Source of the DNA: a virus
Lineage: Duplodnaviria > Heunggongvirae > Uroviricota > Caudoviricetes
Reading direction: 5' to 3' (one strand)
DNA: 24,678 bases
IMG/VR virus record: IMGVR_UViG_2690316166_000006
Location: 1-24,678 of that record
In this document: positions 7,793 to 22,753 of the stretch, in pieces
Layout: each line of letters begins with the position of its first letter
Numbering within the stretch: position 1 is the stretch's first letter
Notes under the pieces: generated by a model
Told to the model about the DNA's origin: nothing
The model's database searches: none
Seen by the model: the letters and a program-made list of their open reading frames with translations, nothing else
Made by a program: the position numbers and the translations under genes

Positions 7793-9694
7793 ATGAGCAA
7801 AGTAAAAATCGGTGAATTAATAAACTCACTTGTTAGCGATGTTGAGTCAATAGATAACTCTGACCGTCCTCAAGGGGAAAAAACAAAAAAAATAAAAGCT
7901 GTTGCATTAAAATTTAAAAATGCATTATTTAATGACAAGCGAAAGTTTAGGGGGAAAGGATTAGAAAAAAGAATTACAGCCAACACATTCAATGCCTATA
8001 TGAGCAGGGCCAGAAAACGGTTTGATGATAAACTTCATCATAGCTTTGAAAAAAATATACATCGCCTATCTGAAAAGTATCCTTTATATAATGAGGAGCT
8101 ATTATCATGGCTTTCTCTACCTGCTGCCGATATTCGCCAGAGAATGTCAGCTTTACAGGCAAAATTAAAATTAATTCTCCCTTTATCAGAAGATTTATCT
8201 AATATCAGAATTGGTGATAACAAAAGTCATAATAAGTTATTAAAATTATCAAATAAATATAAAGAGTGGCAATTCGCCATTTCTGATTTAACTAGCGATA
8301 ACTGGAAAGATAAGCGCGATTATTTATATAAATTACTACAGCAAGGATCTGCCTTACTTGAGGAGTTGAATCAGCTAAAAGTTAACCATGAGATTCTCTA
8401 TCATCTTCAACTAAGCCCTGCCGAACGCGCATCTATCCAGCAACGATGGGCAGACGTTCTGCACAATAAGAAACGTAACGTGGTGGTCATTGATTACCCT
8501 AAATATATGCAAGCTATTTACGATATTATAAATAGCCCTGCTACATTAAATAATCTAAACACTCGTTCAGGTATGGCTCCTTTGGCATTTGCACTTGCTG
8601 CATTGTCAGGAAGACGAATGATTGAGATTATGTATCAAGGTACATTTACTGTTTCTGGTAAGTATACCGTTGATTTTTTAGGCCAAGCAAAAAAAAGAAC
8701 TTCTGATGATATAACCAGAAAAATATATACATTATGCGAAGCAAAAACATTTGTTTATTTAATAAATGTACTTCGCTCATGCCCAGCAGCATCTGATTTT
8801 GATGATGTCGTTAAAGGTTATGGAGATAACGACACACGCTCTGAAAACGGACGGATTAATGCCATATTAGCAAAGGCTTTTAACCCGTGGGTTAAATCAT
8901 TTTTCAAAGATGACCGCCGTGTTTATAAAGATAGTCGTGCTATTTATGCCCGTATTGCGTATGAAATGTTTTTCCGCGTAGATCCTCGTTGGAAAAACGT
9001 AGATGAGGATGTTTTCTTTATGGAAATTTTAGGCCATGACGATGAAAACACTCAATTACACTATAAGCAATTCAAGCTGGCCAACTTCTCAAAGACATGG
9101 AGGCCAAATACTGGAAACGAAAATACCAGGCTGGAAGCATTGCAGCAGCTTGATGACGAAATGCCAGGATTCGCCAGAGGAGATGCCGGAGTTCGTCTGC
9201 ATAACACAGTTAAGCAGCTGGTAGAGCAGGACCCCTCTATAAAAATCACGAACAGCACTCTAAGAGCATTCAAATTTAGCCCTACAATGATTAGTCGATA
9301 CCTGGAATTTGCTGCTGATGCTCTGGGGCAATTTGTTGGCGAAAATGGACAATGGCAGCTGAAAATAGATTCTCCAGAAATCGTTATGCCTGACGAAGAA
9401 GAGCTGGAAGCAATACCTGAACAGACGGATGAATTATCAGAGGATGACGATCTGGATGACGACGAAATTGAGATAGAGGAAGAGGAAGAGGAAGAGGAAG
9501 AGAGCGTAGAAGAACAGCAACCGCCCGCGCCTTCTTCACCTGTATCTAAGCCGGTATTTAAGCCTGTGAGAAATATTGGTGATGGCTCATACGTTGTTGA
9601 ATTTCATTATAATGGCCAGAATTATGCTTGGTCCGGCAGTGCAAACAGCCCTATATCAGCAATGCAGTTAGCATGGCTGACATATTTCGGATAA
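7793..9694 (+). CDS. telN: Protelomerase TelN (telomere resolvase, tyrosine-recombinase-like)
   Basis: 633 aa. The N-terminus MSKVKIGELIN..DRPQGEKTKKIKA..KNALFNDKRKFRGKGL.KRITANTFNAYMSRARKRFDDKLHHSF and internal NTRSGMAPLAFALAA.SGRRMIEIM, RINAILAKAFNPWVKSFF and YARIAYEMFFRVDPRWKNVDEDVFFMEILGHDDENTQLHYKQFKLANFS match N15 TelN from memory. AGGAGAGG precedes the ATG. Confidence 0.95.
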   Translation: MSKVKIGELINSLVSDVESIDNSDRPQGEKTKKIKAVALKFKNALFNDKRKFRGKGLEKRITANTFNAYMSRARKRFDDKLHHSFEKNIHRLSEKYPLYNEELLSWLSLPAADIRQRMSALQAKLKLILPLSEDLSNIRIGDNKSHNKLLKLSNKYKEWQFAISDLTSDNWKDKRDYLYKLLQQGSALLEELNQLKVNHEILYHLQLSPAERASIQQRWADVLHNKKRNVVVIDYPKYMQAIYDIINSPATLNNLNTRSGMAPLAFALAALSGRRMIEIMYQGTFTVSGKYTVDFLGQAKKRTSDDITRKIYTLCEAKTFVYLINVLRSCPAASDFDDVVKGYGDNDTRSENGRINAILAKAFNPWVKSFFKDDRRVYKDSRAIYARIAYEMFFRVDPRWKNVDEDVFFMEILGHDDENTQLHYKQFKLANFSKTWRPNTGNENTRLEALQQLDDEMPGFARGDAGVRLHNTVKQLVEQDPSIKITNSTLRAFKFSPTMISRYLEFAADALGQFVGENGQWQLKIDSPEIVMPDEEELEAIPEQTDELSEDDDLDDDEIEIEEEEEEEEESVEEQQPPAPSSPVSKPVFKPVRNIGDGSYVVEFHYNGQNYAWSGSANSPISAMQLAWLTYFG

Positions 9695-9705
9695 AGCATA
9701 CGGTA

Positions 9706-9738
9706 AAGGCACCGAATTATCGGTGCCTTGTTGTGTGG
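9706..9738. terminator. Hairpin after telN, probably a bidirectional terminator
   Basis: 9-bp stem aaggcaccg / cggtgcctt with loop aattat, followed by gttgtgtgg. The U-tract is poor. Confidence 0.45.
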
Positions 9739-9739
9739 T

Positions 9740-9904
9740 CTACCTCGCCTGCCCCTTTTCGTCCTCATCCAACTTTCTGATAGCCGTAGAATCAATACCC
9801 GCCGCCATACACACATCAGATGCAACAAACCACGGATCGCCGTTAATCATCACTACACGTACCTGATGCTCTTCCTGAAAGGAAAATACTGCTAACGCGC
9901 TCAT
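9740..9904 (-). pseudogene. Truncated Bro-N / phage-antirepressor N-terminal fragment (54 codons)
   Basis: Minus-strand translation MSALAVFSFQEEHQVRVVMINGDPWFVASDVCMAAGIDSTAIRKLDEDEKGQAR* carries the Bro-N signature (F.F....VRV..I.G.PWFVA.DVC.......A...LD.DEKG) and then stops. Full Ant/Bro proteins run several hundred residues. The ATG overlaps the upstream ORF stop (ATGA), with AAGGAGG upstream. It is absent from the ORF track because it is under 60 aa. Confidence 0.6.
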
Positions 9905-10134
9905 TCAGCCTCCTTACCGTGCAGCAATTGCGACGAGAGCGATGCTGAATATCCCTGTGCTTCGTGTGTTAACTCACACGCAATTTGAAGGAGTTTCCCT
10001 GCTTCTGAGAGATAAATCGACGCCTCACAGCTGGAGACTGTCCGATGGGCTGATGATACGAGCGCATAGACCTGAGCCAGACGTTCATCCAACGATTCCA
10101 GCAGGCCAACAGTGTTCATTTTTACCTGATTCAT
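9901..10134 (-). CDS. Small hypothetical protein (77 aa) translationally coupled to the Bro-N fragment; sits where icd lies in P1-type anti-immunity operons
   Basis: ORF 9901..10134 with ATG start and GAGGTG 6 nt upstream. The positional analogy is inference only. Confidence 0.45.
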   Translation of the reverse strand: MNQVKMNTVGLLESLDERLAQVYALVSSAHRTVSSCEASIYLSEAGKLLQIACELTHEAQGYSASLSSQLLHGKEAE

Positions 10135-10460
10135 GCAGCCACCTCGCGCACCGGAATACGGGCAGACAATACCAGGACAAACCGGCTGGCGAACTGGCGA
10201 CGAGCTTCCCGTTCAGATGACGCGATGGTGGAAAGATGATGGATGTGTGACTTTTTGTCTGTGCGAACGACTGCCGCAAATTTGAATTTGAACATGGTAT
10301 GCACTCTTGTTTGGTAAAACAGTGCTACCACCAGAGTTGAGAATCTCTATGGGGTGGTAGCCCAAGCGGGGTTCTCAACACCGGCCCAAACGACACCGGC
10401 CAGCCTTTCGGCTGCCCCACCTGAGCCACCATAATTCGGATATGCGCAGGCTCATACACA

Positions 10461-10484
10461 CAAAAAAACACGCTGGCGCGTGTT
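10461..10484 (-). terminator. Rho-independent terminator on the minus strand
   Basis: On the minus strand: stem acacgc / gcgtgt with loop gcca, then seven U (plus-strand A-run 10462-10468). Confidence 0.55.
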
Positions 10485-10594
10485 GTGCGTCGTTCGGATT
10501 TCGGGGTTGAGAGTCCCGGCTACGGGATTTACCGCAGCGAAGTAACTTTACCGTCAAAACGACGCACACGTCAATAATTTGCAAAGGCATTTTA
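10485..10594 (-). ncRNA. Candidate structured small RNA or leader upstream of the anti-immunity genes
   Basis: No credible ORF. A long-range inverted repeat gtgcgtcgtt (10485-10494) / aacgacgcac (10557-10566) encloses internal hairpins (cccggctacggg) and the region ends at the minus-strand terminator. Ends are not defined. Confidence 0.3.
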
Positions 10595-10614
10595 CCCCGT
10601 GACCAGTCACGGGG
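10595..10614. promoter_or_regulatory. 20-bp perfect palindrome ccccgtgaccagtcacgggg (GTGACYRGTCAC family, copy 1)
   Basis: Perfect inverted repeat, followed on the plus strand by acaggtgttttta. A TATAAA on the minus strand lies just upstream (plus 10623-10628), so the palindrome would sit at the start of the leftward transcript. Confidence 0.5.
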
Positions 10615-10675
10615 ACAGGTGTTTTTATAGTTTGCTTGAACGAGTGTTCAGAAGTTGATCGTTAATCAAAGGCCA

Positions 10676-10963
10676 TTACTGATTAAGAGATTGGAAATAC
10701 CTAACTAACTTACCGGCATCATCACATTTTTCTTTATCTTCTTCCTTAACATAGCCGCGACAAAAGGCTGAATAAAATTTTGCATTTTCAGAAGCAAAAG
10801 CAGCCGTCGAAAGGAGCAGTTCTTTGCATGATTCTTTTGATGCAGCATCGGGATTATTTTTACATGCAAGCTCTGCTGATGAGTCAATAACAGAAATGCT
10901 ATCTTCCTGGGCATAAACCGCAGCAGAAAAGGCAAAACATAAAACAAAAATAAAACTCTTCAC
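10676..10963 (-). CDS. Small secreted, Cys-containing protein (95 aa) of unknown function
   Basis: ORF 10676..10963. N-terminal signal peptide MKSFIFVLCFAFSAAVYA-QE. The mature part is hydrophilic with four Cys. Confidence 0.55.
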   Translation of the reverse strand: MKSFIFVLCFAFSAAVYAQEDSISVIDSSAELACKNNPDAASKESCKELLLSTAAFASENAKFYSAFCRGYVKEEDKEKCDDAGKLVRYFQSLNQ

Positions 10964-10990
10964 TTTATCTCCTGTAACAGTTATCGCAAC

Positions 10991-11386
10991 TCAATCAACT
11001 TTTTTAGCATCAGCCATACGCTTCAACCAGTAATCAACAATCGGTTGCTCATCCACAGAATGTTTACCAGGTATAACTAGCCAGCTGTCTGCCGAAAGGC
11101 TACCGTATCTATGCGGGAAAAGGCATTTCTTTAGCTCCTGCCATGTGCTAGGAAAACCGTCTGCCAAAGTGCCAATTAACAGAAAAGGGACAAAAATCAG
11201 GGCTACAAACCATCGGGCAAGAAAGTGCTCAACAATAACCTCTTCACCGTTATAGTAATACGCATACGTATCCCATATACGAATTTTCCTTACCCTAAAA
11301 ATGGCCTTATGCTGAGAACGACTTAGCTTGATGCGAATGTATCCCTTATCCAAGAGGGATTGGTGTTTGTATGATTGAACAGCCAT
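10991..11386 (-). CDS. Small single-pass membrane protein (132 aa) of unknown function
   Basis: ORF 10991..11398 trimmed to the ATG at 11386, which has a GGGG run a few nt upstream. Hydrophobic helix FLARWFVALIFVPFLLIGTLA. Starts 2 nt after the upstream gene stop. Confidence 0.5.
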   Translation of the reverse strand: MAVQSYKHQSLLDKGYIRIKLSRSQHKAIFRVRKIRIWDTYAYYYNGEEVIVEHFLARWFVALIFVPFLLIGTLADGFPSTWQELKKCLFPHRYGSLSADSWLVIPGKHSVDEQPIVDYWLKRMADAKKVD

Positions 11387-11388
11387 TT

Positions 11389-11715
11389 TTAACCCCACTC
11401 ACCATCAGCAAACAAAGCGTTATACTCTGACAATGGTAGACGGTTGCCCTCGATGTAGAGATTCAGTTCATACTTCGTCTCCGGGTTTTCCTTGTCGGCT
11501 CGTTCCCAACGCTCAGCAGCCTTACGCGCCAATAATTCCACTGCTTTCAGGTAATCCTCCGTACGGAACCAGCCAAAGATAAGGCCACGATCTGTTACAG
11601 CCCAGGCGACCTTTTTTTCTTCCTCCTGGATAGCCTTAATGCGTCGATCGCATTCATCCCGGCAGAACTGCAGCTGACGGTAATCAAGTTTGTCCAAAAA
11701 TGCAGTAGTAGACAT
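11389..11715 (-). CDS. Hypothetical protein (108 aa)
   Basis: ORF 11389..11715 with ATG start and GGGGAG 8 nt upstream. Confidence 0.55.
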   Translation of the reverse strand: MSTTAFLDKLDYRQLQFCRDECDRRIKAIQEEEKKVAWAVTDRGLIFGWFRTEDYLKAVELLARKAAERWERADKENPETKYELNLYIEGNRLPLSEYNALFADGEWG

Positions 11716-11903
11716 ATTTTTACTCCCCGTTCACCGAAAAATCACGATAGAAGCGTTTCCACATACGATAAGTCTGCGCGAGTTGTTCACCACGAAACAT
11801 CGCCTTCCTGGCCTTCATGTTTTCCTTGTGAGACTTTCGATCTATGAACCAAAACCATTGCTGGAACACACAAAGCAAGAGACACAAAGATAATATCCAC
11901 TGA

Positions 11904-14900
11904 TTACCCATAGAAAGCGCCCTGCTCTTCGTAGCTGCATGAGCTATTCCCGGTAATGTATTCTCGTAACCGCCGCAATTCATTGCTGGACAAGTGATCC
12001 ATGAACTCTGTGAGATACAGAGATGCAAACGTCATAGCTATGCTGGCTGATGACCATGATGACATAGTGGCCAGCTCCTCACCGGAAAGCGCACTCATCG
12101 CCCAGGACTCAGGAACAGCCACCGGCAATACGGCCAAAGCCTCAGAAATTACTGAATGAGGGGCGTTTTGAACCTGCTCGTTTGTGGATCGCGTTTTATC
12201 ATCCATATATATATTGAGATCCAAATCGCGATCCATTTCGATGGCTGTCTTCTCGGCTTTACGCGTTTTTAGGGTTAGGCCATCTTTCTGACGCTGAACA
12301 AGAATATCCAGCATAAATGCCGCTGATTCAGGCTCAACAAAACGCAAGGTTGGACGCTTATCGCCGTCTCTGCCGCGACGTTTACCTGTTTTAAGGCCAA
12401 GAGAGTCGCAAATGTTTTTAAACAACGCTTCCGGCACTTTAGGCTTCCCTTTTGGCGTCATAAAACCACCAATGTGCAGAACGTTATTCAACAGGTCACG
12501 GCGTTCGGCTGTCATGAGGTTATCTCGAGCGAATTTGAGACGCTCCTGAGTCGCCTCGCCGGTCATAGTCTCAGGGTTGATACCGCAGTCGATAAAGTAC
12601 TGCCGGAGAGTTGCTGATTTAAGCGCATAGAAACCGCGCGCCCCGACTTCAACAGTAGGAGTAGCTTTTACCTTGTAGTCGATTATTCCAGGGAATTTAG
12701 TTTTAAAGACATCATCAGCCTGCTCGCGAGTCATCGCGGTCACTACAAAATATTGCCACTGTCCCGCCTGACGGTATGCGTAGGTAAAATTGATGGCTGC
12801 TTCTTCCCGGTCGTAACGACGAGCTGTTACCTCATCTAAAAGCATTGTTTCATAGCGGCGAACTTTGTCTCGAGCACCATCGAAATAGAATTTCAGCGTG
12901 CCTTCTTCAACCGGTAGTTTCAGTTCGTTCTCAATATCCCAGCGGACAAGTTTTGCTTGTTCTTCAAGCGTCAGCGCGCGTTTTTTTAGCAGTTCTTCAC
13001 GCTCTGATTCTTGTGGAGTTTCTGTATTGAGATGCAGATCCAGTGTCTGTTCCCACACAATATCCCGCGCTTCTTTACGCAGATCTTTACCGATATCATT
13101 CGCAGCATAATCGGTGGCCAGCGGCGATACCTTATAACCGTCGCTGTGCATGATGCAGATCATGTTGCTGGCGTAGTCGTTACGCGCAGACGCTTCAATT
13201 GCGGCTGCTTTAATTTTCATCCTGGTAAAGTCGGTATTGGCCACCCCCATTGATATACGGTCGCCATCGAAAACGACATCCGTCAGTTCACCGTTCATGC
13301 CTGCGGTAGCAAGCAATGCCTGGACGAATGCTCGTTCTATTTTTTGCGGGTCAGTTTCACGTTTTGCGCGAGCTTTATCAAAGCCGATAATAAATTCTTT
13401 TGCTGTACGGTCGCGGCGTAGCATTTGCACTGCGTCGCTGGGTACAACTTCACCACAGAACATGCCGAAATGACGGTCAAAATGTTTTTGCTCAATCGAC
13501 ACACCGGATGAAATAGACGGGCTATAAATCAGGCCGTCGTATTTTTTGACCATCTTTTTCGGTTGATTGGTAAATGCTTCAACTTCTGGCTCTGGTTTGT
13601 TTTTCTGGTTTACACACAGAAATTTCTTACCAGGAAAATGCATTCTCAGGGTGGCGGTCACATCTTCTGCAAAGGTGGAGCTGTCGGTGGCCAACATGAT
13701 TTTTTCGCCATTCGATACAGCTTTCACCACCTCGGTCATAATGCGATCTTTTTCTGTATAAAAAACCCGGATTGGCTCACCTGTTTCGCGGTTGCGAACA
13801 TCAACAGGTAATTCAATTACGTGGATCTGCAGCCATGCCGGTAAACCTAGTTCTTCACGGCGTTTCATAGCCAGTTCAGCCAGGTCAACCAGCAGATCGT
13901 TCGCATCAGCATCCACCATTATTGGGTGTTGTTCCGTTCTGGCCAGCGCGTCAATTAACGTATTGAATACAGCCACCGGGTTTTCCATAGCCCGACCGGA
14001 AATAACGGCACGTAGCCCTTGCGTGGCCTCGTCAAAGCCAAAATAGTCGTGCTGGCGCATCAATGGTTGCCAGCAGTTTTTAACAATCGAGTTTATGCAG
14101 ATGGTCAGTTTACTGGCGTATGGAGCCATTTCCTGATAGCCAGGGTCCTGATAGTGCAGGATATCGGCTTTTACACCTTTTCCTTCTGTCATCATTTCCC
14201 ACAGGCCACCAATAAGGGAAACACGGTGAGCAACAGAGATACCACGTTCTGAGCTATGCATTAAAGGTCGTAACAATCCAGTAGATTTGCCGGAACCCAT
14301 ACCAGCACGAACGATGACTATCCCCTGTAGTGATTGCACATACTTCAGGACGTCATCGGTCATTACCGAAGTTTCAAAACGCTTATAGGTGATATGTTGA
14401 GGACGTTTATTGGGATCAGTTATTCGTTCGCTGAATGAGCGCGGAGCCTGGGCAATACGGCACTTTTTATTCAGGCGACGGGCAATGTGGTCTTTTACCG
14501 TAGCGCGATAGATATTTTCCAGCCCAATTTCACGCAGGACGATGCAGAACATGTTAAATAAGTCTGACGGACTGTTAGGAACCGGACAGGTTAGCATGCC
14601 AATATCCACTGCTCTCAGCAGCTCTTTGGCAAAAGTACGACGGTTATCCCGCTTAATTGTCTTCAGGCGGTTGAGCGTCAGAGATAGCAAATCAGTGCCA
14701 GTTTTCAGGCGGTTTGCAGTTGCAAACAGTTGACGTGCTGTTTCACGAAGTCCACGTAGTTTGTGCAGGTCGTTGAAGTCACTGCACTCCATTTGCGGAT
14801 CGTCTTCAAAAGTTGGATAGACGCAGCGGACATCGTTGAATTTCGATAAGATTTCATAGCCAGTCCGCAGGCCGGTATTCCCTTTTCCTTCTGTAGCTGA

Positions 14901-15899
14901 TTTCCGGTCATTATCCAGTGCGCAGGTGATTTTTGCCGCCGGGTACATGTTTACCAGTTGTTCCACAACATGAACCATGTTGTTAGCGGATACAGCGACA
15001 ACCACAGCGTCAAAGCGTTTATCTTTTTTCGTGGCAAGCCAGATGGATGCACCAGTAGCAAAACCTTCTGTAACAGCGATGTTTTGCGCCCCTTTCAGCT
15101 CACCGATAACAAAGCAGGCACCGACGAAATCGCCGCTGGTTACGGCGCTGGTCTGGTATTTTCCACCTTGTTTGTCGATTCGCTGCCAACCAACAATACG
15201 ACCATCGTAACGACCGTCCAGGTGAGCCAGAGGGATAGCCATATACGTGGTTGGCCCCCTGCTCCATTTTGCGCTGTCGTGACTGGTCACGCGACGCACA
15301 TCACACGAATTAAAAACGTCACGAATACCTTTTTTAATCGCATATGGCCATGAGCCGTCTTCTGCAGGAGCATGTTCCCAAGCACTGTGGAATGCCAGCC
15401 ATCCCAGCAAACGTTCATGGTCCATTTGGTTGTTTTTCAGGTCATTAATTCGTTTTTGTTCTTCACGGCGACGACGTGCTTCGGCCTGACGTTCTATTCT
15501 TGCCCGTTCTTCTTCCGGTTGTGCGACCACGGTCGCATTATTCCGTTGTTGCTCACGGCGATATTCAGAAAACAGGAAGGAGAAACCGCTCCATGAGCCA
15601 GCATCGCTGCCTTTATGGACGAAGTTAATGAACGGGTAATCAATCCCTTTGCTGTGTTCCAGCCGGGAGTAAATTTCTACGCGTCCTTTGAGGCTCTTTT
15701 CGAGAGCTTCTGGGGATGTTTTATTGTATGAAGAGTAACGCTCAACACCCCCGCGAGGGTTGAGTTGGATGTTGTCGGAACAGGCAGACCAGTTGATACC
15801 AGCCATCTGTGCCAGCTCGGTTAGTTCATCCCGTGCTGCTTCAATTAGCGAGAACGGATCGCTGCCAAAGCGATCCGCATAGAAATCGTTTAATGTCAT
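11904..15899 (-). CDS. repA: Replication protein RepA: large primase-helicase (N15 RepA / P4 alpha-like)
   Basis: 1331-aa ORF. Toprim-like primase motifs (VTEGFATGASI, AVSANN, ALDNDRK) and Walker A GMGSGKST. Size and position next to cB match N15 RepA. Confidence 0.88.
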   Translation of the reverse strand: MTLNDFYADRFGSDPFSLIEAARDELTELAQMAGINWSACSDNIQLNPRGGVERYSSYNKTSPEALEKSLKGRVEIYSRLEHSKGIDYPFINFVHKGSDAGSWSGFSFLFSEYRREQQRNNATVVAQPEEERARIERQAEARRRREEQKRINDLKNNQMDHERLLGWLAFHSAWEHAPAEDGSWPYAIKKGIRDVFNSCDVRRVTSHDSAKWSRGPTTYMAIPLAHLDGRYDGRIVGWQRIDKQGGKYQTSAVTSGDFVGACFVIGELKGAQNIAVTEGFATGASIWLATKKDKRFDAVVVAVSANNMVHVVEQLVNMYPAAKITCALDNDRKSATEGKGNTGLRTGYEILSKFNDVRCVYPTFEDDPQMECSDFNDLHKLRGLRETARQLFATANRLKTGTDLLSLTLNRLKTIKRDNRRTFAKELLRAVDIGMLTCPVPNSPSDLFNMFCIVLREIGLENIYRATVKDHIARRLNKKCRIAQAPRSFSERITDPNKRPQHITYKRFETSVMTDDVLKYVQSLQGIVIVRAGMGSGKSTGLLRPLMHSSERGISVAHRVSLIGGLWEMMTEGKGVKADILHYQDPGYQEMAPYASKLTICINSIVKNCWQPLMRQHDYFGFDEATQGLRAVISGRAMENPVAVFNTLIDALARTEQHPIMVDADANDLLVDLAELAMKRREELGLPAWLQIHVIELPVDVRNRETGEPIRVFYTEKDRIMTEVVKAVSNGEKIMLATDSSTFAEDVTATLRMHFPGKKFLCVNQKNKPEPEVEAFTNQPKKMVKKYDGLIYSPSISSGVSIEQKHFDRHFGMFCGEVVPSDAVQMLRRDRTAKEFIIGFDKARAKRETDPQKIERAFVQALLATAGMNGELTDVVFDGDRISMGVANTDFTRMKIKAAAIEASARNDYASNMICIMHSDGYKVSPLATDYAANDIGKDLRKEARDIVWEQTLDLHLNTETPQESEREELLKKRALTLEEQAKLVRWDIENELKLPVEEGTLKFYFDGARDKVRRYETMLLDEVTARRYDREEAAINFTYAYRQAGQWQYFVVTAMTREQADDVFKTKFPGIIDYKVKATPTVEVGARGFYALKSATLRQYFIDCGINPETMTGEATQERLKFARDNLMTAERRDLLNNVLHIGGFMTPKGKPKVPEALFKNICDSLGLKTGKRRGRDGDKRPTLRFVEPESAAFMLDILVQRQKDGLTLKTRKAEKTAIEMDRDLDLNIYMDDKTRSTNEQVQNAPHSVISEALAVLPVAVPESWAMSALSGEELATMSSWSSASIAMTFASLYLTEFMDHLSSNELRRLREYITGNSSCSYEEQGAFYG
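15278..15291. repeat. 14-bp palindrome cgtgactggtcacg inside repA (GTGACYRGTCAC family, copy 2)
   Basis: Perfect inverted repeat sharing the 12-bp core with the sites at 10601 and 20994. Confidence 0.4.
15522..15537. promoter_or_regulatory. sopC-like centromere candidate TGCGACC-AC-GGTCGCA inside repA
   Basis: 16-bp palindrome with the same architecture as the F sopC core TGGGACC-AC-GGTCCCA. One of three copies in the window. Confidence 0.5.
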
Positions 15900-16022
15900 T
15901 TTTTAGCCATTCCATGCGAATTATGTTTTTTCGGGTTGAAAAAATCCGCAGGAGCAGCCACAATAAACGCATCTTGAATTGACGGAATCCGTCGCGTTAC
16001 TGTGGCTGCTTCCTGAAAAGGA

Positions 16023-16050
16023 CCCGAGTTTGCCGACTCGGGTTTTTTTT
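16023..16050. terminator. Hairpin with T-run between cB and repA; attenuator or terminator in the repA leader
   Basis: Stem cccgag / ctcggg with loop tttgccga, then eight T. An adjacent long imperfect stem-loop (ggagcagccaca ... tgtggctgcttcc, about 15963-16025) is followed on the minus strand by a U-run. Confidence 0.5.
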
Positions 16051-16144
16051 CGTCTTTTTTCTGCTGCTGTAACCTGAGTCAACCCACAGAACATATGCTC
16101 TGCATTAAACCAGATTTACAGCAAACAATAAACCCCGTATTAAG

Positions 16145-16741
16145 TCATCTACCCTCAACCATGAATGATTTGATCGTTCCGACTATTTGGTGAACAAATT
16201 CAAGATCGCTTTTCCTGAAGATAGCGCGTTGTGAATTTGTTCCGTCCAGATAGTAATTTTCATCATCAAAACGGGCCAGGCGCTGGATGGTGATATTTCC
16301 TGCAGTATCACGAACCAGAACATCCTCGCCGGGGACCAGTTCCAGCGCAGAATCGACCAGGAGAAAATCGCCAGGCTGATAGTTTCCCTGCGCCAGATTG
16401 CTGATAGTTAACGCATAAACAGTATTGCGCTGGCTGATGAATGGCAGGAATCGCTCAGTATTTGGAACCTGTCCTGGCTTCCACTCTTCATCAGGTCCAC
16501 TTTCAGTTGTGCCAATAACAGGAATGCGATCAGGGTCATATTCTGTCCCATACAGCACCCAATGCACTGGCTTGCGTAAGCATTTAGCCAGGGCAATACC
16601 TATCTCCAGTGACGGCATTACGTCGCCACGTTCTAAGTTTTGGACGCCTGCAATAGAGATATCGACAGCCTCAGCAACTTCTCGCAACGTCAGCTTCATC
16701 TCTAAACGGCGTGCTTTCAGTCGTTCGCCTCGTGTTTTCAT
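16145..16741 (-). CDS. cB: Prophage repressor CB (CI-like: N-terminal HTH plus C-terminal LexA/S24-like domain)
   Basis: 198 aa. N-terminal HTH (LTLREVAEAVDISIAGVQNLERG) and a C-terminal domain of S24-peptidase-like length. Divergent from a cro-like gene across an operator-bearing intergenic region. Confidence 0.85.
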   Translation of the reverse strand: MKTRGERLKARRLEMKLTLREVAEAVDISIAGVQNLERGDVMPSLEIGIALAKCLRKPVHWVLYGTEYDPDRIPVIGTTESGPDEEWKPGQVPNTERFLPFISQRNTVYALTISNLAQGNYQPGDFLLVDSALELVPGEDVLVRDTAGNITIQRLARFDDENYYLDGTNSQRAIFRKSDLEFVHQIVGTIKSFMVEGR

Positions 16742-16763
16742 AGCTTAATCATAAATGATCTTC

Positions 16764-16805
16764 TTATAGCTGGCTATAAAATTTATTTATTATAGCTGGC
16801 TTTAA
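16764..16805. promoter_or_regulatory. Immunity operators: palindrome TTATAGC-TG-GCTATAA (16764-16779) and a second copy TTATAGCTGGCTTTAA (16790-16805)
   Basis: Two related 16-bp sites 26 bp apart between cB and cro. A TATAAT at 16821-16826 lies 6 bp upstream of the cro ATG. Confidence 0.6.
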
Positions 16806-16832
16806 ATGCGATTTATTGCTTATAATAACCGC

Positions 16833-17054
16833 ATGAAACCAGAAGAACTTATTCGCCACTTTGGCAGTGTAGAAAAAGCAGCGGCTGGGGTAGGTGTAAC
16901 ACCCGGTGCTGTTTACCAATGGTTAACCGCTGGAGAGATTCCTTCATTGCGGCAAAGTGATATTGAAGTTCGTACTGCTTACAAGCTGAAGAGTGACTTT
17001 ACAACTCGGCGGGTAAAGCAGTCGATTAAGGAGAGCCGTAAGCGTGGAGCTTGA
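16833..17054 (+). CDS. cro: Cro-like small DNA-binding protein
   Basis: ORF 16806..17054. The ATG at 16833 is preferred (MKPEELIRHFGSVEKAAAGVGVTPGAVYQWL: helix-turn-helix). The TATAAT just upstream suggests a leaderless transcript. Confidence 0.75.
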   Translation: MKPEELIRHFGSVEKAAAGVGVTPGAVYQWLTAGEIPSLRQSDIEVRTAYKLKSDFTTRRVKQSIKESRKRGA

Positions 17055-17754
17055 GTATATACGCAGCTGCGTCTCCACGGCATTGGCTGATATTCATTAT
17101 CGCCAGCGTGGCATCCTAGAGGTCCAGCTTGAGCAGATGCGTCTAGGCAGATCAGGACGCTTTAACAATAAACCAGTCCGGTCAATCAGTGTAGGTGATG
17201 ATAACTCATACGAAGTGTCTGTTCCTGCTGAGCCGGTTAGATTCCACCAGGGCAAAACATTTAAACAATCATCAATGTTGCTCACTGATATTGATTTTCA
17301 GAGCGCCAGCTGGCGCAGGGCTATTGGTCAGTTGAATAACGAGGAATCAGCCTGGCTTTATTATTGCTACGGATGCAAGCCTGACTACAACAATGATGTG
17401 ATTGTTTGTCAGTGGTTATGGCTTGATTTTCTGGTTGCGCATTCGGGTGGCGGGTTTAAAAAAATGAAGGCCTCCACGAAAAAAGCCATGAGAAAATTGA
17501 TTTATTACGCGGCACAGCAGGTTAAGTCAGAACTTACGTGTGCTGAGGCAGTTGATGAGAGAGAACAGGACAGGCATCTGAGTTTTCTACTGAATATATC
17601 TATTGATAGCTGGAGACAAGATTATAAAGAACGCTGGCTTTTAATTAAGTCGCGATGTCTGAGCTTAAATCGAACTGCATTATTAAATGCGGCGGAGAAG
17701 CGCAGTGAAATCATCAAACGCCATCGGGCAGGAAGTGCCATTCTGCCTTTGTAA
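17044..17754 (+). CDS. Hypothetical protein (236 aa) in the position of a Q-like late regulator
   Basis: ORF 17044..17754 immediately after cro. Assignment is by position only; no diagnostic motif seen. Confidence 0.4.
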   Translation: MELEYIRSCVSTALADIHYRQRGILEVQLEQMRLGRSGRFNNKPVRSISVGDDNSYEVSVPAEPVRFHQGKTFKQSSMLLTDIDFQSASWRRAIGQLNNEESAWLYYCYGCKPDYNNDVIVCQWLWLDFLVAHSGGGFKKMKASTKKAMRKLIYYAAQQVKSELTCAEAVDEREQDRHLSFLLNISIDSWRQDYKERWLLIKSRCLSLNRTALLNAAEKRSEIIKRHRAGSAILPL

Positions 17755-17761
17755 ACAAGTT

Positions 17762-18007
17762 ATGTTCAGGAAACCGTCGAAGCCAGAATTAAGGTATTCG
17801 GGGGTAAGAAATGAATATGTTATCTGGTGTCCAACTTGTGGTTACAGAACACGACCAGATAGTAATAAGCAGTCTGTAATTGCCGATTGGTATTTATCAA
17901 ATCAGCCAGGTAATAAGCATATAGAAAATCTTTGGATTAAGCGTTACTTGGAAATCAGAGAGGGTGCGACCGTGGTCGCACAAGAAAATGAAAATAACGC
18001 CATTTAA
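17762..18007 (+). CDS. Small hypothetical protein with a CPTCG motif (81 aa)
   Basis: ORF 17687..18007 trimmed to the first ATG after the upstream stop. Confidence 0.35.
   Translation: MFRKPSKPELRYSGVRNEYVIWCPTCGYRTRPDSNKQSVIADWYLSNQPGNKHIENLWIKRYLEIREGATVVAQENENNAI
17964..17981. promoter_or_regulatory. sopC-like centromere candidate GTGCGACC-GT-GGTCGCAC
   Basis: 18-bp palindrome with the same arms as the sites at 15522 and 22732, central dinucleotide in opposite orientation. Confidence 0.5.
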
Positions 18008-18017
18008 GCAGGGGCCG

Positions 18018-18191
18018 ATGACGCATGATGAAGCAGAGCGTCTTTCAGATACTTATCGGCGGCGTGGTAAGAAAGTTCTGGTTGTTCGTTCTGATTTTTT
18101 AGGTGATGGATATTGCGTTTATGTTCATTTACCTGAATCAGAAAGAGCGCCAAAACCATCCAGAACATATCAACAGAAGTTTTGGGTATAG
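18018..18191 (+). CDS. Small hypothetical protein; start uncertain (17988 or 18018)
   Basis: ORF 17964..18191. The ATG at 18018 has AGGGG upstream. Confidence 0.3.
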   Translation: MTHDEAERLSDTYRRRGKKVLVVRSDFLGDGYCVYVHLPESERAPKPSRTYQQKFWV

Positions 18192-18214
18192 ATAAACGTT
18201 GAGGATAATTATTC

Positions 18215-18814
18215 GTGACTAATCAGATTATTTACGACAGGAAACGGTCTGATGTAATGATTGACCTTGAAACAATGGGTACTAATACATGTGCTGCAAT
18301 TGTTTCTATCGGAGCAGTGTTTTTTTCTCCAGAAAGTGAGGAATTAGGTCCTACCTTTTATGTGCCAGTGAATCTCAGAAGCTCGATGTTGAATGGTGGT
18401 ATCGCCGATGGTGATACCATTTTATGGTGGTTGAAACAGAGCAAGGAAGCCAGAGCCGCTATTTGTACTAATGATGCCCTTGATATTAAGGATGCACTTT
18501 TTGAATTATCACACTTTATTACTTGCCATGCATGTAATTTAAAAAAGTTGAAAGTATGGGGAAATGGAGCAACGTTCGATAATGTAATTTTACGCGGTGC
18601 TTATGAGCGCGTTGGCTTAGCCTGTCCGTGGGAATATTTTAATGATCAGGATGTTCGAACAATCGTTAATCTTGGTCAGTTTATTGGTTTTAATCCTAAA
18701 AAAGATATGCCATTTGATGGCGAACGACACAATGCCCTGGCTGATGCTATTCATCAGGCTAAATATGTATCCGCAATTTTCTCCCGTCTTGTAAAAGGGC
18801 AAGGAGAATCGTAA
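18215..18814 (+). CDS. DEDDh-type 3'-5' exonuclease
   Basis: 199 aa. Exo I motif MIDLETMG and Exo III motif HNALADA. GTG start with GAGGA 8 nt upstream. Confidence 0.7.
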   Translation: MTNQIIYDRKRSDVMIDLETMGTNTCAAIVSIGAVFFSPESEELGPTFYVPVNLRSSMLNGGIADGDTILWWLKQSKEARAAICTNDALDIKDALFELSHFITCHACNLKKLKVWGNGATFDNVILRGAYERVGLACPWEYFNDQDVRTIVNLGQFIGFNPKKDMPFDGERHNALADAIHQAKYVSAIFSRLVKGQGES

Positions 18815-19236
18815 TGGCAAAGTCTTTTACACCAGAACAGAGGAAAGAACTGAATAAACAAATTGTGGAACTCGTGCGCCTGAATGGACGAGGAACGGTT
18901 AGGCAACTTGCGGATGAAACTGGTATTAGCCGGTGTGCTGTTAGTCGTTTATCAAGAGAGCTTGCTGCCAGTGGTGATTTGTATATCTCTGGCTCCGGGA
19001 TATTTCTGTCTGCACAAGCACGCAAGGACTGGCAAAACGCCCGTAAAAAACTATCAAGAGTAAAGCCGAAGAAATCGGTAGTGGTTGATCCAGACCTTAT
19101 CTGGTCATTACCTGACGGAGAAATACGTCGTTACGACAGGCGCTTGAACATGATTTGTCACGATTGTCGGAAGAGCGAAGTTATGCAGCGTGTACTGGCG
19201 TTTTATCAGGGAAATTTTCATGAGGTGGTGCGGTGA
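18814..19236 (+). CDS. Putative winged-helix/HTH DNA-binding protein (140 aa)
   Basis: ORF 18814..19236. GTVRQLADETGISRCAVSRLSREL resembles an HTH. Start overlaps the upstream stop. Confidence 0.5.
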   Translation: MAKSFTPEQRKELNKQIVELVRLNGRGTVRQLADETGISRCAVSRLSRELAASGDLYISGSGIFLSAQARKDWQNARKKLSRVKPKKSVVVDPDLIWSLPDGEIRRYDRRLNMICHDCRKSEVMQRVLAFYQGNFHEVVR

Positions 19237-19523
19237 ATATCGACACAACAATGACGGTCGATACGGTTCTGAATACTGGTCTGGCCCTGTTTGGTTATTT
19301 TTACATCATGTTCAGCGCAGGGAAGTGGGCGGCCACTGTTTTTCTAAAACAGTGGAAAAAACGGCGCAAACAGGAGCTACGCCAGAAGGCATTAGAAGCG
19401 TTCTATGACGCATTTGAACTTAACAGCATTGAACCAGGCACAACAGTCAGAGTGGCAACCAAAGGTGATCTGATGATCATGATGTTCCGACAGGAGAAAG
19501 CAGAGAAAGGGGAATCCGCATGA
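19233..19523 (+). CDS. Small membrane protein (96 aa)
   Basis: Hydrophobic segment LNTGLALFGYFYIMFSAGKWAATVF. Overlaps both neighbours by 4 nt. Confidence 0.5.
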   Translation: MNIDTTMTVDTVLNTGLALFGYFYIMFSAGKWAATVFLKQWKKRRKQELRQKALEAFYDAFELNSIEPGTTVRVATKGDLMIMMFRQEKAEKGESA

Positions 19524-20098
19524 AATTTTCCAAATTTTCTGAGTTGGTGAATCGTATCTTGTCCAACAAACACAGCCAGCGTTGCGATATGAATGTAACG
19601 ATTGTTGTTCATTCACCAGGTAGCATTGGTTCAACACCATCAGTTGATGTTCAGTCAATTCAGGCTGGTTTTGACTGGGATTCCGGACAAGTAATGATTT
19701 TTCCAGCCCAGCAACTGACTACGCTAACTCCAGAGCAGGTTGCTGATATTACTGAAAGCGTGCGCAAAGGACAGTCCTGGCACGCATATCAGGAATACAA
19801 AAAGCATAAAGAGCAGTTGGAAAAATTGTCTATTGAGCTGGAAGCTGCAAGAAAGCGAATTGTAGAACAGGGAAACAAAGTAACACCAGTGTCAGCTGAA
19901 CTGCCACCTGCAAATGAAAGTGTTTTGTTATTCGATGCTAACGGAGAAGGCTGGCTGATTGGCTGGCGTTCTCTCTGGTACACCTGGGGACAAAAAGAAA
20001 CCGGAGAATGGCAGTGGACATTTCAGGTCGGGGATCTTGAAAACGTCAATATCACTCATTGGGCAGTAATGCCGAAAGCACCGGAGGCTGGAGCATAA
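19520..20098 (+). CDS. Hypothetical protein (192 aa)
   Basis: ORF 19520..20098. The C-terminal W-rich segment (WLIGWRSLWYTWGQ ... ITHWAVMPKAPE) resembles the DUF551 family, from memory only. Confidence 0.5.
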   Translation: MKFSKFSELVNRILSNKHSQRCDMNVTIVVHSPGSIGSTPSVDVQSIQAGFDWDSGQVMIFPAQQLTTLTPEQVADITESVRKGQSWHAYQEYKKHKEQLEKLSIELEAARKRIVEQGNKVTPVSAELPPANESVLLFDANGEGWLIGWRSLWYTWGQKETGEWQWTFQVGDLENVNITHWAVMPKAPEAGA

Positions 20099-20655
20099 TG
20101 ATCACGTTTACCGACAAAGAACTGATTAAAGAAATCAAAGAGCGAATCGGTAGCCTGGACGTTCGAGACAATATTGAGCGCCGTGCTTATGAAATTGCAC
20201 TGGCATCGCTGGAAGCAGATCCAGTTGCTTATATTTTCAAACATCCGGCTGGAAAATTATTCTGGGCTTTAACGGATGAAAGCAATAAAGAGCAATCGGA
20301 CGTTATTCCTGTTTATGCCGCCCCTCCAGTGCCAGTAGTACCTGAAGAAAAACCAATGCCTAACCCTCTTAAAATGTACGCGGTTGATGCTGTTGCCGCT
20401 ATTGCAGAGGTGAGAGGCTGGAACGCCTGTCGTGCCGCTATGCTTCAGAGTCAAGGTAATTGCATTAAGGATGGTTGGATAAGCTGTAGTGAGCAAATGC
20501 CAGATGATGGTCGTATTCAGTTTTCTGTTTCACTTCCAGCAGCATGTGGTGGAGATAAATATTTTATTGATGGTGTATTTCAACCTTTGAGATATGAGCG
20601 TGACTGTGAAAAAGCGGTTGTGGCCGCTGGCGGTGTAGTTAATTGGGTTAAGTAA
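20098..20655 (+). CDS. Hypothetical protein (185 aa)
   Basis: ORF 20059..20655 trimmed to the ATG at 20098, which overlaps the upstream stop (TAATG) and has GGAGG upstream. Confidence 0.5.
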   Translation: MITFTDKELIKEIKERIGSLDVRDNIERRAYEIALASLEADPVAYIFKHPAGKLFWALTDESNKEQSDVIPVYAAPPVPVVPEEKPMPNPLKMYAVDAVAAIAEVRGWNACRAAMLQSQGNCIKDGWISCSEQMPDDGRIQFSVSLPAACGGDKYFIDGVFQPLRYERDCEKAVVAAGGVVNWVK

Positions 20656-20670
20656 TTTTTAGGAGGATTT

Positions 20671-20997
20671 ATGGCGCTGACACCGGCAGAACGGCAAAGA
20701 AGACGCAGGGAACGGTTGAAGAAGGAAGGAACATCAAGACGTGACTGGATTCTGGAACCTGACGAGTTACGTATGTTGGGGGAAATTTGTGTATTGCGTA
20801 GACCAGGGCGAGTTCCATATTCAGAGAACGAAGTCATCGGACTGCTGATCAGGAAAAACTATAAGGAGTTGCAGAAACAGCTATCTACTACTTGTCCGCG
20901 ATGTGGTCAAAAAATGCCTGTTTCAGAATGCATTTTTGATGGTGAAGGCTCATGCCACCTTACAACCACGAGGCTGAAACTTGCGCTCAAAGTGTGA
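20671..20997 (+). CDS. Hypothetical basic protein with a CPRCG zinc-ribbon-like motif (108 aa)
   Basis: ORF with AGGAGGA upstream. Arg-rich N-terminus (ERQRRRRERLKKEG). Confidence 0.5.
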   Translation: MALTPAERQRRRRERLKKEGTSRRDWILEPDELRMLGEICVLRRPGRVPYSENEVIGLLIRKNYKELQKQLSTTCPRCGQKMPVSECIFDGEGSCHLTTTRLKLALKV

Positions 20998-21005
20998 CTG
21001 GTCAC
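20994..21005. repeat. 12-bp palindrome GTGACTGGTCAC (GTGACYRGTCAC family, copy 3)
   Basis: Overlaps the stop of the 20671..20997 ORF and precedes the RBS of the small ORF at 21016. Confidence 0.4.
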
Positions 21006-21015
21006 GGAGGGATAA

Positions 21016-21171
21016 ATGGACAAAAAGGCATTGCTTTTTGAAATGATACGAAAACGGAGCGAAAAGAGCTTTTCTGATGGTGGTGATGGGCTTTTGAAAG
21101 TGGTTGGGCGAGGCGTAGGAAGGGAACATAAGTATCGGACTACAAAGATATTTAACCAGTTAATCCATTGA
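21016..21171 (+). CDS. Small ORF (51 aa)
   Basis: GGAGGG lies 6 nt upstream of the ATG. Not in the ORF track because it is under 60 aa. Confidence 0.3.
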   Translation: MDKKALLFEMIRKRSEKSFSDGGDGLLKVVGRGVGREHKYRTTKIFNQLIH

Positions 21172-21172
21172 A

Positions 21173-21189
21173 AGTTGGCTATAAAATTT
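21173..21189. promoter_or_regulatory. Operator-like motif AGTTGGCTATAAAATTT matching the cB-cro operator region
   Basis: 16 of 17 identical to 16768-16784 (AGCTGGCTATAAAATTT). Confidence 0.45.
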
Positions 21190-21198
21190 GAGTTTTAC

Positions 21199-21217
21199 CC
21201 TGTAATTTTATACAGTA
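21199..21217. promoter_or_regulatory. LexA (SOS) box CTGT-N8-ACAG
   Basis: cCTGTaattttatACAGta fits the E. coli SOS box pattern. It overlaps a promoter-like TTGAGT-17-TACAGT and lies 25 bp upstream of the ATG at 21240. No other CTGT-N8-ACAG site was seen on manual scanning. Confidence 0.6.
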
Positions 21218-21239
21218 TCAAATAACCTTTTTTAATTAA

Positions 21240-21458
21240 ATGGTATTAGATTCAATGACTGAAGCACCTGTATCAACTCTTGAAGAACTCGGATCAAACC
21301 TAAAAGACATCGACGCCGTTTTGGATCTGGTTAGCGTTGCTCTGGCTTCTCCAGAAGCCAGCTTGCATCTTGGCGAGATTTCACGACTTGTTAGTATGTC
21401 GCGGGAGATTGCTCAGAATTGCCAACAAGTTATTGCTGTTGAGTGTTTGCATCATTGA
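21240..21458 (+). CDS. Small acidic protein (72 aa); candidate SOS-inducible antirepressor
   Basis: ORF directly downstream of the LexA box and the operator-like site. No RBS seen. The function is inferred from context only. Confidence 0.4.
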   Translation: MVLDSMTEAPVSTLEELGSNLKDIDAVLDLVSVALASPEASLHLGEISRLVSMSREIAQNCQQVIAVECLHH

Positions 21459-21501
21459 TACACACCCCGCCCTTCTGGACGGGGTAGCGAAAAGGGTCTA
21501 A

Positions 21502-21789
21502 TCAATAGACGGCATTAATATTAATCGTTGCACCGCATGCTTGGGCATATTTTGATAAAGTTTTCATGCTTGCCCCTAAAGGATTGCTTTCCAGGCGGCT
21601 GATAGCTGACGGGCGCAATCCCATTCGTTCAGCCAGAGCTGACTTCGTTAAACCTGCTCTTTCCCTCATTTCGTATAACATTTCGACCATCTCCAGCTCT
21701 TTATCGGCCTCTTCATATCCTTTGATGGCTTCTGGAGTGTTGAGAAGTTTTTCTTTTACTTCGTTAAACGGGATGCCTTTCGCTTTCAT
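21502..21789 (-). CDS. HigA-like antitoxin (XRE-family HTH)
   Basis: 95 aa. LTKSALAERMGLRPSAISRLESNP is an HTH typical of HigA-type antitoxins. Sits downstream of, and overlapping, the toxin gene. Confidence 0.75.
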   Translation of the reverse strand: MKAKGIPFNEVKEKLLNTPEAIKGYEEADKELEMVEMLYEMRERAGLTKSALAERMGLRPSAISRLESNPLGASMKTLSKYAQACGATININAVY

Positions 21790-22100
21790 CAGTTCATCTC
21801 CTTCAGGCGAGTTCTGGCGATTTCGATAGCCTTCACCGGTGTTTTCTGTGTCTTTTTTACAAATGCATGCAATAGATAAATTTCGTTACCAGTCGCGTAG
21901 GCGTACAGCGTTCTTGCGATGTTTTTATCCCCTACTCGTAGTTCAAAAAGCCCTCCACCTATTACACGGCTATGGGGCATCTTCAGTTTGTTGCCTTCCT
22001 TCTCCAGTCGCTCAATTAATCTGGTCATGCGACCTCGCAAATCATCTGGTAGTTCAAGCAGTTCATCCAGTGCTGCAGGGTGGGTTATCACGTTAAACAT
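21789..22100 (-). CDS. HigB/RelE-superfamily toxin (phage Gp49-like family)
   Basis: 103 aa. LFELRVGDKNIARTLYAYATGNEIYLLHAFVKKTQKTP matches the Gp49-like killer-protein pattern. Toxin-first order is typical of higBA. Confidence 0.7.
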   Translation of the reverse strand: MFNVITHPAALDELLELPDDLRGRMTRLIERLEKEGNKLKMPHSRVIGGGLFELRVGDKNIARTLYAYATGNEIYLLHAFVKKTQKTPVKAIEIARTRLKEMN

Positions 22101-22731: not shown

Positions 22732-22753
22732 CTGTGCGACCACGGTCGCACAG
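22732..22753. promoter_or_regulatory. sopC-like centromere candidate CTGTGCGACC-AC-GGTCGCACAG
   Basis: 22-bp palindrome, the longest of the three copies, just after the stop of the preceding ORF. Confidence 0.5.

Follow-up and report, generated by a model that had tools for sequence, protein, structure and literature searches.

Which protein, if any, recognises a 12-bp inverted repeat, GTGAC-N2-GTCAC, that occurs at three dispersed positions in a 24,678-nucleotide stretch of Caudoviricetes DNA (IMG/VR record IMGVR_UViG_2690316166_000006; the whole stretch is called the window), and what would it do there? Judged from its sequence the window is an N15-like linear plasmid-prophage (phage-plasmid), an identity based on its gene content (sopBA, telN, repA, cB, cro and Q) and on its relatives: the region 9000-22000 shares 97% identity with Escherichia phage PhiR46_1 and 95% with YDC107_1 (genus Ravinvirus), and parts of N15 and of Klebsiella phage phiKO2 show 74-77% identity to it. 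A preliminary description of this DNA had considered a dedicated regulator of the repeats plausible, which is still the best reading, and comparative evidence points to a homologue of the N15 protein gp46 that is encoded in the window. This protein very probably binds the GTGAC-N2-GTCAC sites, given that its gene and the sites co-occur in unrelated phages and that one site lies in the stop codon of the gene itself. The sites and their proposed binder are as follows.

10599-10610, strand opposite to that of sites 2 and 3: site 1, GTGACCAGTCAC
15279-15290: site 2, GTGACTGGTCAC, inside repA
20994-21005: site 3, GTGACTGGTCAC
20671-20997, plus strand: N15 gp46 homologue gene, proposed binder, 108 amino acids (aa), phrog_536

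The three copies lie where they had been placed, with 12-mers starting at 10599, 15279 and 20994, and enumeration of the motif over the window returns no further match at up to one mismatch. None of them is the perfect palindrome it was taken for: with an asymmetric central dinucleotide (CA/TG) they are inverted repeats of the 5-2-5 type, and all therefore represent one 12-mer in either orientation. The arm-spacer-arm arrangement is 9-2-9 around site 1 (10595-10614), 6-2-6 around site 2 (15278-15291) and 5-2-5 at site 3. The core had been given as GTGAC-YR-GTCAC, but the defining motif is GTGAC-N2-GTCAC, since the centre of site 1 in N15-like loci is either TG or GG and eight IMG/VR relatives with GG carry GTGACGGGTCAC at this position. 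At up to one mismatch 0.07 matches would be expected and none of 100 shuffles reached three, while at two mismatches the nine matches compare with 6.5 expected, so that the six additional ones are at chance level. In a post hoc control 30 of 300 dinucleotide shuffles gave some palindrome family with 5-bp arms and three copies, and with such post hoc choice taken into account the significance that the window provides by itself is modest. A full-text literature search for the 12-mers found no relevant paper. Read outward from the presumed replication origin all three sites have the sequence GTGACTGGTCAC, an arrangement expected by chance in one case out of four and from which nothing is claimed.

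The motif recurs with unchanged orientations at the three syntenic positions in N15, phiKO2, PhiR46_1 and YDC107_1, and there are exactly three sites in each of the complete N15 and PhiR46_1 genomes. The 45 IMG/VR loci that were retrieved by way of RepA (74-100% identity) have variable flanks around the sites but invariant arms at each of the three. The 20-bp extension of site 1 is restricted to the sub-lineage of the window and shrinks to 14 bp in N15 and 12 bp in phiKO2. On account of this conservation at syntenic positions, sequence comparison identifies the sites as real conserved elements of N15-like linear phage-plasmids. Site 2, which is located 612 nt into repA, encodes RepA residues 205-208 (VTSH) in frame on the minus strand. 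Over 3.9 kb of 35 distinct repA sequences no nucleotide-invariant run is longer than the 17-mer CGCGTGACCAGTCACGA at 15277-15293, which spans site 2, and the contrast with codons for invariant degenerate amino acids, of which only 9.6% are themselves invariant, shows selection on site 2 at the DNA level. The same 35 sequences share an invariant 11-nt stretch, ATTCGTGACGT (15313-15323, repA sense strand), that starts 32 nt upstream of site 2 (start to start on that strand) and holds a lone GTGAC half-site; it is not claimed as an auxiliary half-site, as an invariant run of three codons is close to chance expectation. The replication origins of N15 and PY54 presumably lie in the 3' part of repA, and site 2, being in the 5' part, was rejected as a candidate origin. 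An inverted duplication of the telN-repA arm with five motif copies is present in YDC107_1 (CP025712.1, 36.9-46.7 kb) and in the IMG/VR contigs behind loci L012/L035 and L038/L050, and is probably assembly read-through of the hairpin telomere rather than biology.

The connection between the sites and gp46 emerges from more distant phages. A tblastn search with the 108-aa homologue finds relatives in unrelated phages, and each of these genomes also bears the motif.

Salmonella podovirus epsilon15: three GTGACATGTCAC at 2142, 19517 and 39612, the last overlapping the stop codon of the homologue gene, gp49
Pectobacterium myovirus ZF40: three sites at 5125, 7622 and 14944, the last 3 nt after the stop codon of the homologue gene, gp22
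Vibrio phage K303: three sites, one of them 226 nt downstream of the homologue stop codon
Pantoea phage AH07: two sites, one over the homologue stop codon
Vibrio phage 10N.237: two sites, one over the homologue stop codon
Vibrio phage PhiPS02: four sites, with the terminal repeat counted twice, none at the homologue stop codon
Yersinia phage YenM_42.18: one site, not at the homologue stop codon

Nine complete gp46-encoding genomes from unrelated phage groups contain one to four GTGAC-N2-GTCAC sites each against about 0.04 expected, and the cross-phage enrichment of sites is about 50- to 100-fold. When all open reading frames (ORFs) of the window were profiled against N15, phiKO2, epsilon15, ZF40 and K303, the gp46 homologue was the only one found in all five. 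All 30 distant IMG/VR loci that the protein alignment retrieved (36-41% identity) have at least one site within 20 kb, where 0.02 would be expected, and a site encloses the TGA stop codon of the homologue in 50 of 50 N15-like loci and in 8 of the 30 distant ones, a configuration that also occurs in the more divergent clades L263-L271 and L274-L275. In the reverse direction, a strong gp46-like ORF is present in 16 of 80 DNA chunks for which possession of CGTGACATGTCACG was the sole selection criterion. Neither a gp46 gene nor any site exists in PY54, which is a telomere phage and has a RepA homologue, and the same is true of lambda and P22; at the position homologous to site 2 the RepA sequence of PY54 differs. 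A megablast search of the phage collection with one distant prophage locus gave no match. A tally from annotation tables puts about 14 of 21 sites in annotated genomes either between genes or over a stop codon, and many are situated exactly at cistron junctions, directly before ribosome-binding sites.

The AlphaFold2 model of the gp46 homologue (predicted local distance difference test, pLDDT, 76) has a helix at residues 5-18, an extended segment, helices at 30-42 and 52-71, a Cys-rich loop and a helix at 96-106. The predicted layout comprises an N-terminal basic helix, a ribbon-helix-helix (RHH) core and a Cys-rich C-terminal part, and the predicted beta-alpha-alpha fold could pair into a dimer with a two-stranded ribbon as in RHH proteins. 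In the family alignments a basic motif near the N-terminus (A6, R8 and R13 in AERxxxxRxR) is invariant and is followed by the RHH-domain-typical pattern xLxLxxxELxxLxxxCxxRRxGRxPYxxxExIxLLI. All three alignments keep C40, C75, C78 and C95 without change, and the 30-sequence alignment keeps C87 as well. No curated RHH family contains the protein, as neither the window protein nor 30 family members have a Pfam or NCBIfam match. A sequence search of the PDB gave no significant match (E <= 0.001), a Foldseek search of BFVD was uninformative, and the sole match in PHROGs is phrog_536, 'transcriptional regulator'. The family forms 937 clusters at 90% identity and 219 at 50%, and its members are nearly all stand-alone proteins of about 105-135 aa labelled as hypothetical; it is rare, with 158 confirmed matches in 2.9 million contigs. 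The arms of the sites are constant in every clade, while at their centre N15-like phages have TG or GG, most enterobacterial phages have AT and Vibrio phages have no fixed dinucleotide; the ribbon residues vary in parallel with the centre (RRDWIL, KLELVL and ELRLKV, respectively). This parallel variation fits a binding mode in which the N-terminal helix would read the arms and the centre would lie under the ribbon. As no convincing plus-strand terminator is found between Q and the gp46 homologue gene, the latter probably belongs to the early rightward operon.

It is proposed that the sites are the cognate sites of the gp46 RHH protein and that gp46 acts on them as an operator-bound repressor or roadblock, an explanation that, taken as a whole, is on balance probable. 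A gp46 dimer would sit on the dyad with its beta-ribbon over the central base pairs, and its conserved basic N-terminal helices would contact the invariant GTGAC arms. Made from the early rightward operon, gp46 would occupy site 1 a short way upstream of the icd/antA anti-immunity operon's promoter region, site 2 at 612 nt into repA, and site 3 at its own stop codon before gp47 and the SOS-controlled antC; so bound, it would restrict both the transcription of repA along its length and that entering either antirepressor module. Repression or a roadblock as the output of binding is a tentative assignment, somewhat short of an even call, which is favoured because phage RHH proteins are typically repressors, because about two-thirds of the sites in annotated genomes are intergenic or at stop codons, directly before ribosome-binding sites, and because, in the N15 context, two of them adjoin antirepressor modules and one is inside repA. 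An analogy is provided by the RHH proteins Arc and Mnt of P22, which control the antirepressor gene ant.

The surroundings of sites 1 and 3 contain candidate targets of such control.

10676-10963, minus strand: last gene of the repA operon
10574-10545, minus strand: predicted sigma-70 promoter of the anti-immunity leader (TTGACG, 18-nt spacer, TAAAGT)
10551-10498, minus strand: c4-a1b1 (Rfam)
10538-10463, minus strand: isrK, Hfq-binding small RNA (Rfam)
10436-10350, minus strand: C4 antisense RNA (Rfam)
21200-21215, plus strand: LexA box, CTGT-N8-ACAG
21240-21458, plus strand: antC-like antirepressor ORF, phrog_10889 anti-repressor

Site 1 is intergenic, 66 nt downstream of the last ORF of the repA operon and ahead of the anti-immunity leader. 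It had been placed at the start of the putative anti-immunity transcript, and lies about 60 bp upstream of the leader start as defined by the minus-strand Rfam families, with its centre at about -66 relative to the predicted leader start; the leader promoter (10545-10574) is a candidate for the regulated target of this site. A TAAAAT hexamer (10590-10595, minus strand) is found 4 nt downstream of site 1 and may be a second promoter, with site 1 occupying its spacer. The hexamer and, on the other side of the site, an A-tract/T-run (10615-10628, ctataaaaac) are conserved in all N15-like loci, and the sequence from these elements to the Pa promoter varies among them. The ORF at 10375-10590 is annotated as a protein in YDC107_1 and is probably non-coding, because the region 10350-10551 matches three successive Rfam families. 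Site 3 holds the TGA stop codon (20995-20997) of the gp46 homologue gene and abuts the ribosome-binding site of a gp47-like ORF (ATG at 21016). The distance of about 200 bp previously given between this copy and the LexA-controlled ORF is borne out by the 195 bp that separate it from the LexA box, and the antC-like ORF region (21200-21458) is a candidate for read-through control at site 3. The gp47-like ORF (21016-21171) has 51 aa in the window against 80 aa in PhiR46_1 (12941-13183), and its match to PHROGs in two pieces suggests a frameshift or nonsense change.

Several observations speak against gp46 being an operator-bound repressor or roadblock. Most RHH operators have at least two adjacent subsites, compared with the single 12-bp dyads here, and simple promoter occlusion is unsupported at site 1 because its centre falls outside the predicted core promoter. 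For an autoregulator it is unusual that a binding site lies at the 3' end of the gene encoding it. The structure model of gp46 is monomeric and of moderate confidence. Moreover, the contexts differ by phage group and no single regulatory output is evident: in epsilon15 the sites precede terminators, in Vibrio phages they are found 20 nt upstream of terS, and in ZF40 they are inside genes.

A rather unlikely alternative is that gp46 is an architectural protein. Through loops, or through boundaries of topological domains established around the replication and immunity core, it would bridge or insulate DNA in the manner of MatP-matS or ParB-type complexes. The low number of dispersed sites per genome (commonly three) in unrelated phages would suit such a role, as would sites 1 and 3, which flank the repA-cB-cro-Q block in inverted orientation, and the half-sites, which are the same as in matS, the target of MatP, itself an RHH protein (PMC6907758). 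Some IMG/VR contigs also contain close pairs of GTGACATGTCAC, 36-120 bp apart (L205 352/472, L212 2239/2316, L218 1821/1941 and L161 5056/5092), which hint at cooperative binding or looping in other phages, and the predicted C-terminal helix and Cys-rich module could mediate oligomerisation. However, there is no sign of oligomerisation beyond the dimer, most small phage RHH proteins are repressors, and the frequent location of sites at cistron junctions by ribosome-binding sites suggests a link to gene expression.

Less favoured still, and quite unlikely, is a positive role in which gp46 would serve as an activator or as a Q-like gate from the early operon into the next module. The gene is often distal in the early operon with a site before the next module (epsilon15 terS, Vibrio terS, ZF40 ninB), a GC-rich hairpin follows 12-22 nt after the site in epsilon15-like and L263-type loci, and A/T-rich -10-like hexamers are often present 2-8 nt after the site. 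Against this, a Q-type antiterminator is already encoded in the window, in ZF40 and in AH07, the epsilon15 and L263 loci have no room for a promoter and start between site and hairpin, and -10-like hexamers are common in A/T-rich intergenic DNA. The arrangement in epsilon15-like and L263-type phages resembles the lambda Q/PR' element in its succession of regulator gene, site, hairpin terminator and next module. A check against the lambda Q-type module showed that the conserved TAAAAT follows site 1 and that hairpins follow the site in other phages, and that the protein is not Q-like; gp46 is unrelated to Q, a separate homologue of which is encoded at 17044-17754.

A bolder version of binding by gp46, with perhaps the same slim prospect as the architectural role, is that the family constitutes an unrecognised widespread system in which an RHH and Cys-rich protein would recognise MatP-like GTGAC half-sites with 2-bp spacing, load in cis at its own stop codon, and gate or insulate transcription or replication modules from a handful of dispersed sites. 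In N15-like plasmid prophages both antirepressor loci and repA would then be subject to a third layer of control, in addition to CB/Cro and the C4-type RNA.

That the sites belong to a host factor, to another phage protein or to no protein at all is, with these possibilities taken jointly, improbable. Binding by a host protein, either MatP or another enterobacterial factor, with the link to gp46 being incidental, is by itself very improbable. Escherichia, Klebsiella, Salmonella, Pectobacterium and Vibrio, the hosts of these phages, all belong to groups having MatP, which would favour a host protein. So would the half-sites, which are identical to those of matS, a 13-bp sequence of the form GTGAC-RNY-GTCAC with a 3-bp spacer (PMC6907758). 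However, the spacer is 2 bp and not 3 bp at all window sites and at nearly all sites elsewhere, PY54, lambda and P22, which have the same kinds of host but no gp46, lack the motif, and in unrelated phage types the motif goes together with the gp46 gene and sits in its stop codon. MatP-matS as the identity of the system was rejected on the same grounds, the window sites being 12 bp long, gp46 not being a MatP homologue and gp46-less phages lacking the sites. An hhalign comparison of the family profile with E. coli MatP (checked against 4d8j_B) gave a probability of 0.1%, and the similarity is at the level of the RHH fold only; MatP has a four-helix bundle and a coiled coil where gp46 has a Cys-rich tail, and gp46, unlike MatP, is phage-encoded with a gene that overlaps one of its sites. 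The Vibrio phages K303 (19491-19503) and PhiPS02 (14562-14574), which both encode ParA-like partition proteins, additionally carry GTGACACCGTCAC, an exact match to the matS consensus with a 3-bp spacer, and a real MatP site on a phage-plasmid would be interesting if true. Two GTGAC-N1-GTCAC 11-mers in lambda, at 9747 and 19010 (GTGACCGTCAC and GTGACAGTCAC), are probably due to chance, and none with a 2-bp spacer occurs there. The binding site of SlmA, GTGAGTACTCAC, matches at 9 of 12 positions, with mismatches at its most conserved positions, and was set aside.

There is scarcely any likelihood that no protein is involved and that the copies are hairpins, with copy 1 as an intrinsic terminator, or chance repeats. 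On the plus strand copy 1 with its flanks has a folding energy of -19.2 kcal/mol (z -3.5), with a U-run after it, and as noted some three-copy family arises in 10% of shuffled windows in a post hoc search. Sites 2 and 3 of the window, as well as site 1 of N15, however, fold no better than shuffles, a 5-bp stem with a 2-nt loop is not viable, the extended stem is not conserved, and the arms of the 12-mer are invariant rather than covarying; chance repeats would also not give the cross-phage enrichment. The suggestion that the 20-bp copy acts only as a terminator thus fits copy 1 at best, and that in the sub-lineage of the window only; even there the U-run begins 7 nt after the inner stem and the terminator scan makes no call. 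Finally, the helix-turn-helix (HTH) protein at 18814-19236 that had been put forward as a candidate, or CB, Cro or SopB, can hardly be the binder: the HTH protein belongs to the same operon and its N-terminus is predicted to be of winged-helix type, but it has no homologue in epsilon15, ZF40, K303, N15 or phiKO2, of which the last two keep all three sites, and CB, Cro and the Sop proteins are absent from the unrelated motif-bearing phages, SopB sites moreover being of a different sequence.

The sites are distinct, as had been stated, from the LexA box and from the sopC-like sites of SopB. The N15 SopB centromere repeats IR1-4 have the consensus GTGCGACC-NN-GGTCGCAC (PMC7205306, Table 4), and an identity of the three sites with this centromere was rejected, because they do not match the consensus and the true IR sites occur separately in the window.

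15522-15537, in repA: exact SopB repeat, TGCGACC-NN-GGTCGCA
17965-17980, after Q: exact SopB repeat, same sequence
22735-22750, before the methylase gene: exact SopB repeat, same sequence

A weaker fourth SopB candidate, TGCGA-N6-TCGCA at 23626-23641, is inside the methylase gene. The two sets are alike in being dispersed palindromes of the same genome with a 2-bp central spacer and one copy in repA, and unlike in sequence and in that SopB is a ParB protein of the HTH type. As regards P22, Arc and Mnt resemble gp46 in being small phage RHH proteins, and two of the three N15-like sites adjoin antirepressor modules (the antA operon and antC). The operators of Arc and Mnt overlap Pant and Pmnt and are bound by tetramers, unlike the gp46 sites, which are single 12-bp dyads with one in repA and one at the stop codon of the regulator; gp46 has no sequence similarity to either protein and differs from them by its additional basic helix at the N-terminus and its Cys-rich C-terminus.

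An RHH protein with dyad sites is a known kind of system. The literature searched contains no description of the gp46 family, of its site or of a site in the regulator's own stop codon, nor of a few dispersed sites per genome or of the spread of the family over N15-like, epsilon15-like, ZF40-like, P2-like and Vibrio phages. The pJAZZ cloning vectors are based on N15, the model linear plasmid-prophage, whose known control circuits (CB/Cro/Q, CA RNA with AntA, LexA with AntC, and SopAB with TelN) explain neither the sites nor gene 46. Because the same gene-site pair recurs in epsilon15-like podoviruses, ZF40-like and Pantoea myoviruses, Vibrio phage-plasmids and many enterobacterial prophages, it would represent a general, so far unannotated regulatory module of temperate phages. 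The pairing of one 108-aa protein with one 12-bp site is concrete and testable, and MatP-matS, with the same half-site at another spacing, offers a natural comparison.

The remaining features of the window are as follows.

5013-7144, minus strand: sopBA
7793-9694: telN
11904-15899, minus strand: repA
16145-16741, minus strand: cB, with cro also present
17044-17754: Q, Q-type antiterminator homologue
18814-19236: HTH protein, DUF977/Ren-like (Pfam DUF977, weak HTH_24; predicted winged-helix N-terminus)

The window also carries a truncated antirepressor operon, an early rightward gene block, the LexA-controlled antC-like ORF, a RelE/antitoxin pair and a Dam-like methylase. In the DUF551/Ea22-like region (about 19520-20655) there is an insertion of about 476 bp relative to PhiR46_1, and the overlapping ORFs 19520-20098 and 20059-20655 stand in place of a single 660-bp gene of that phage.

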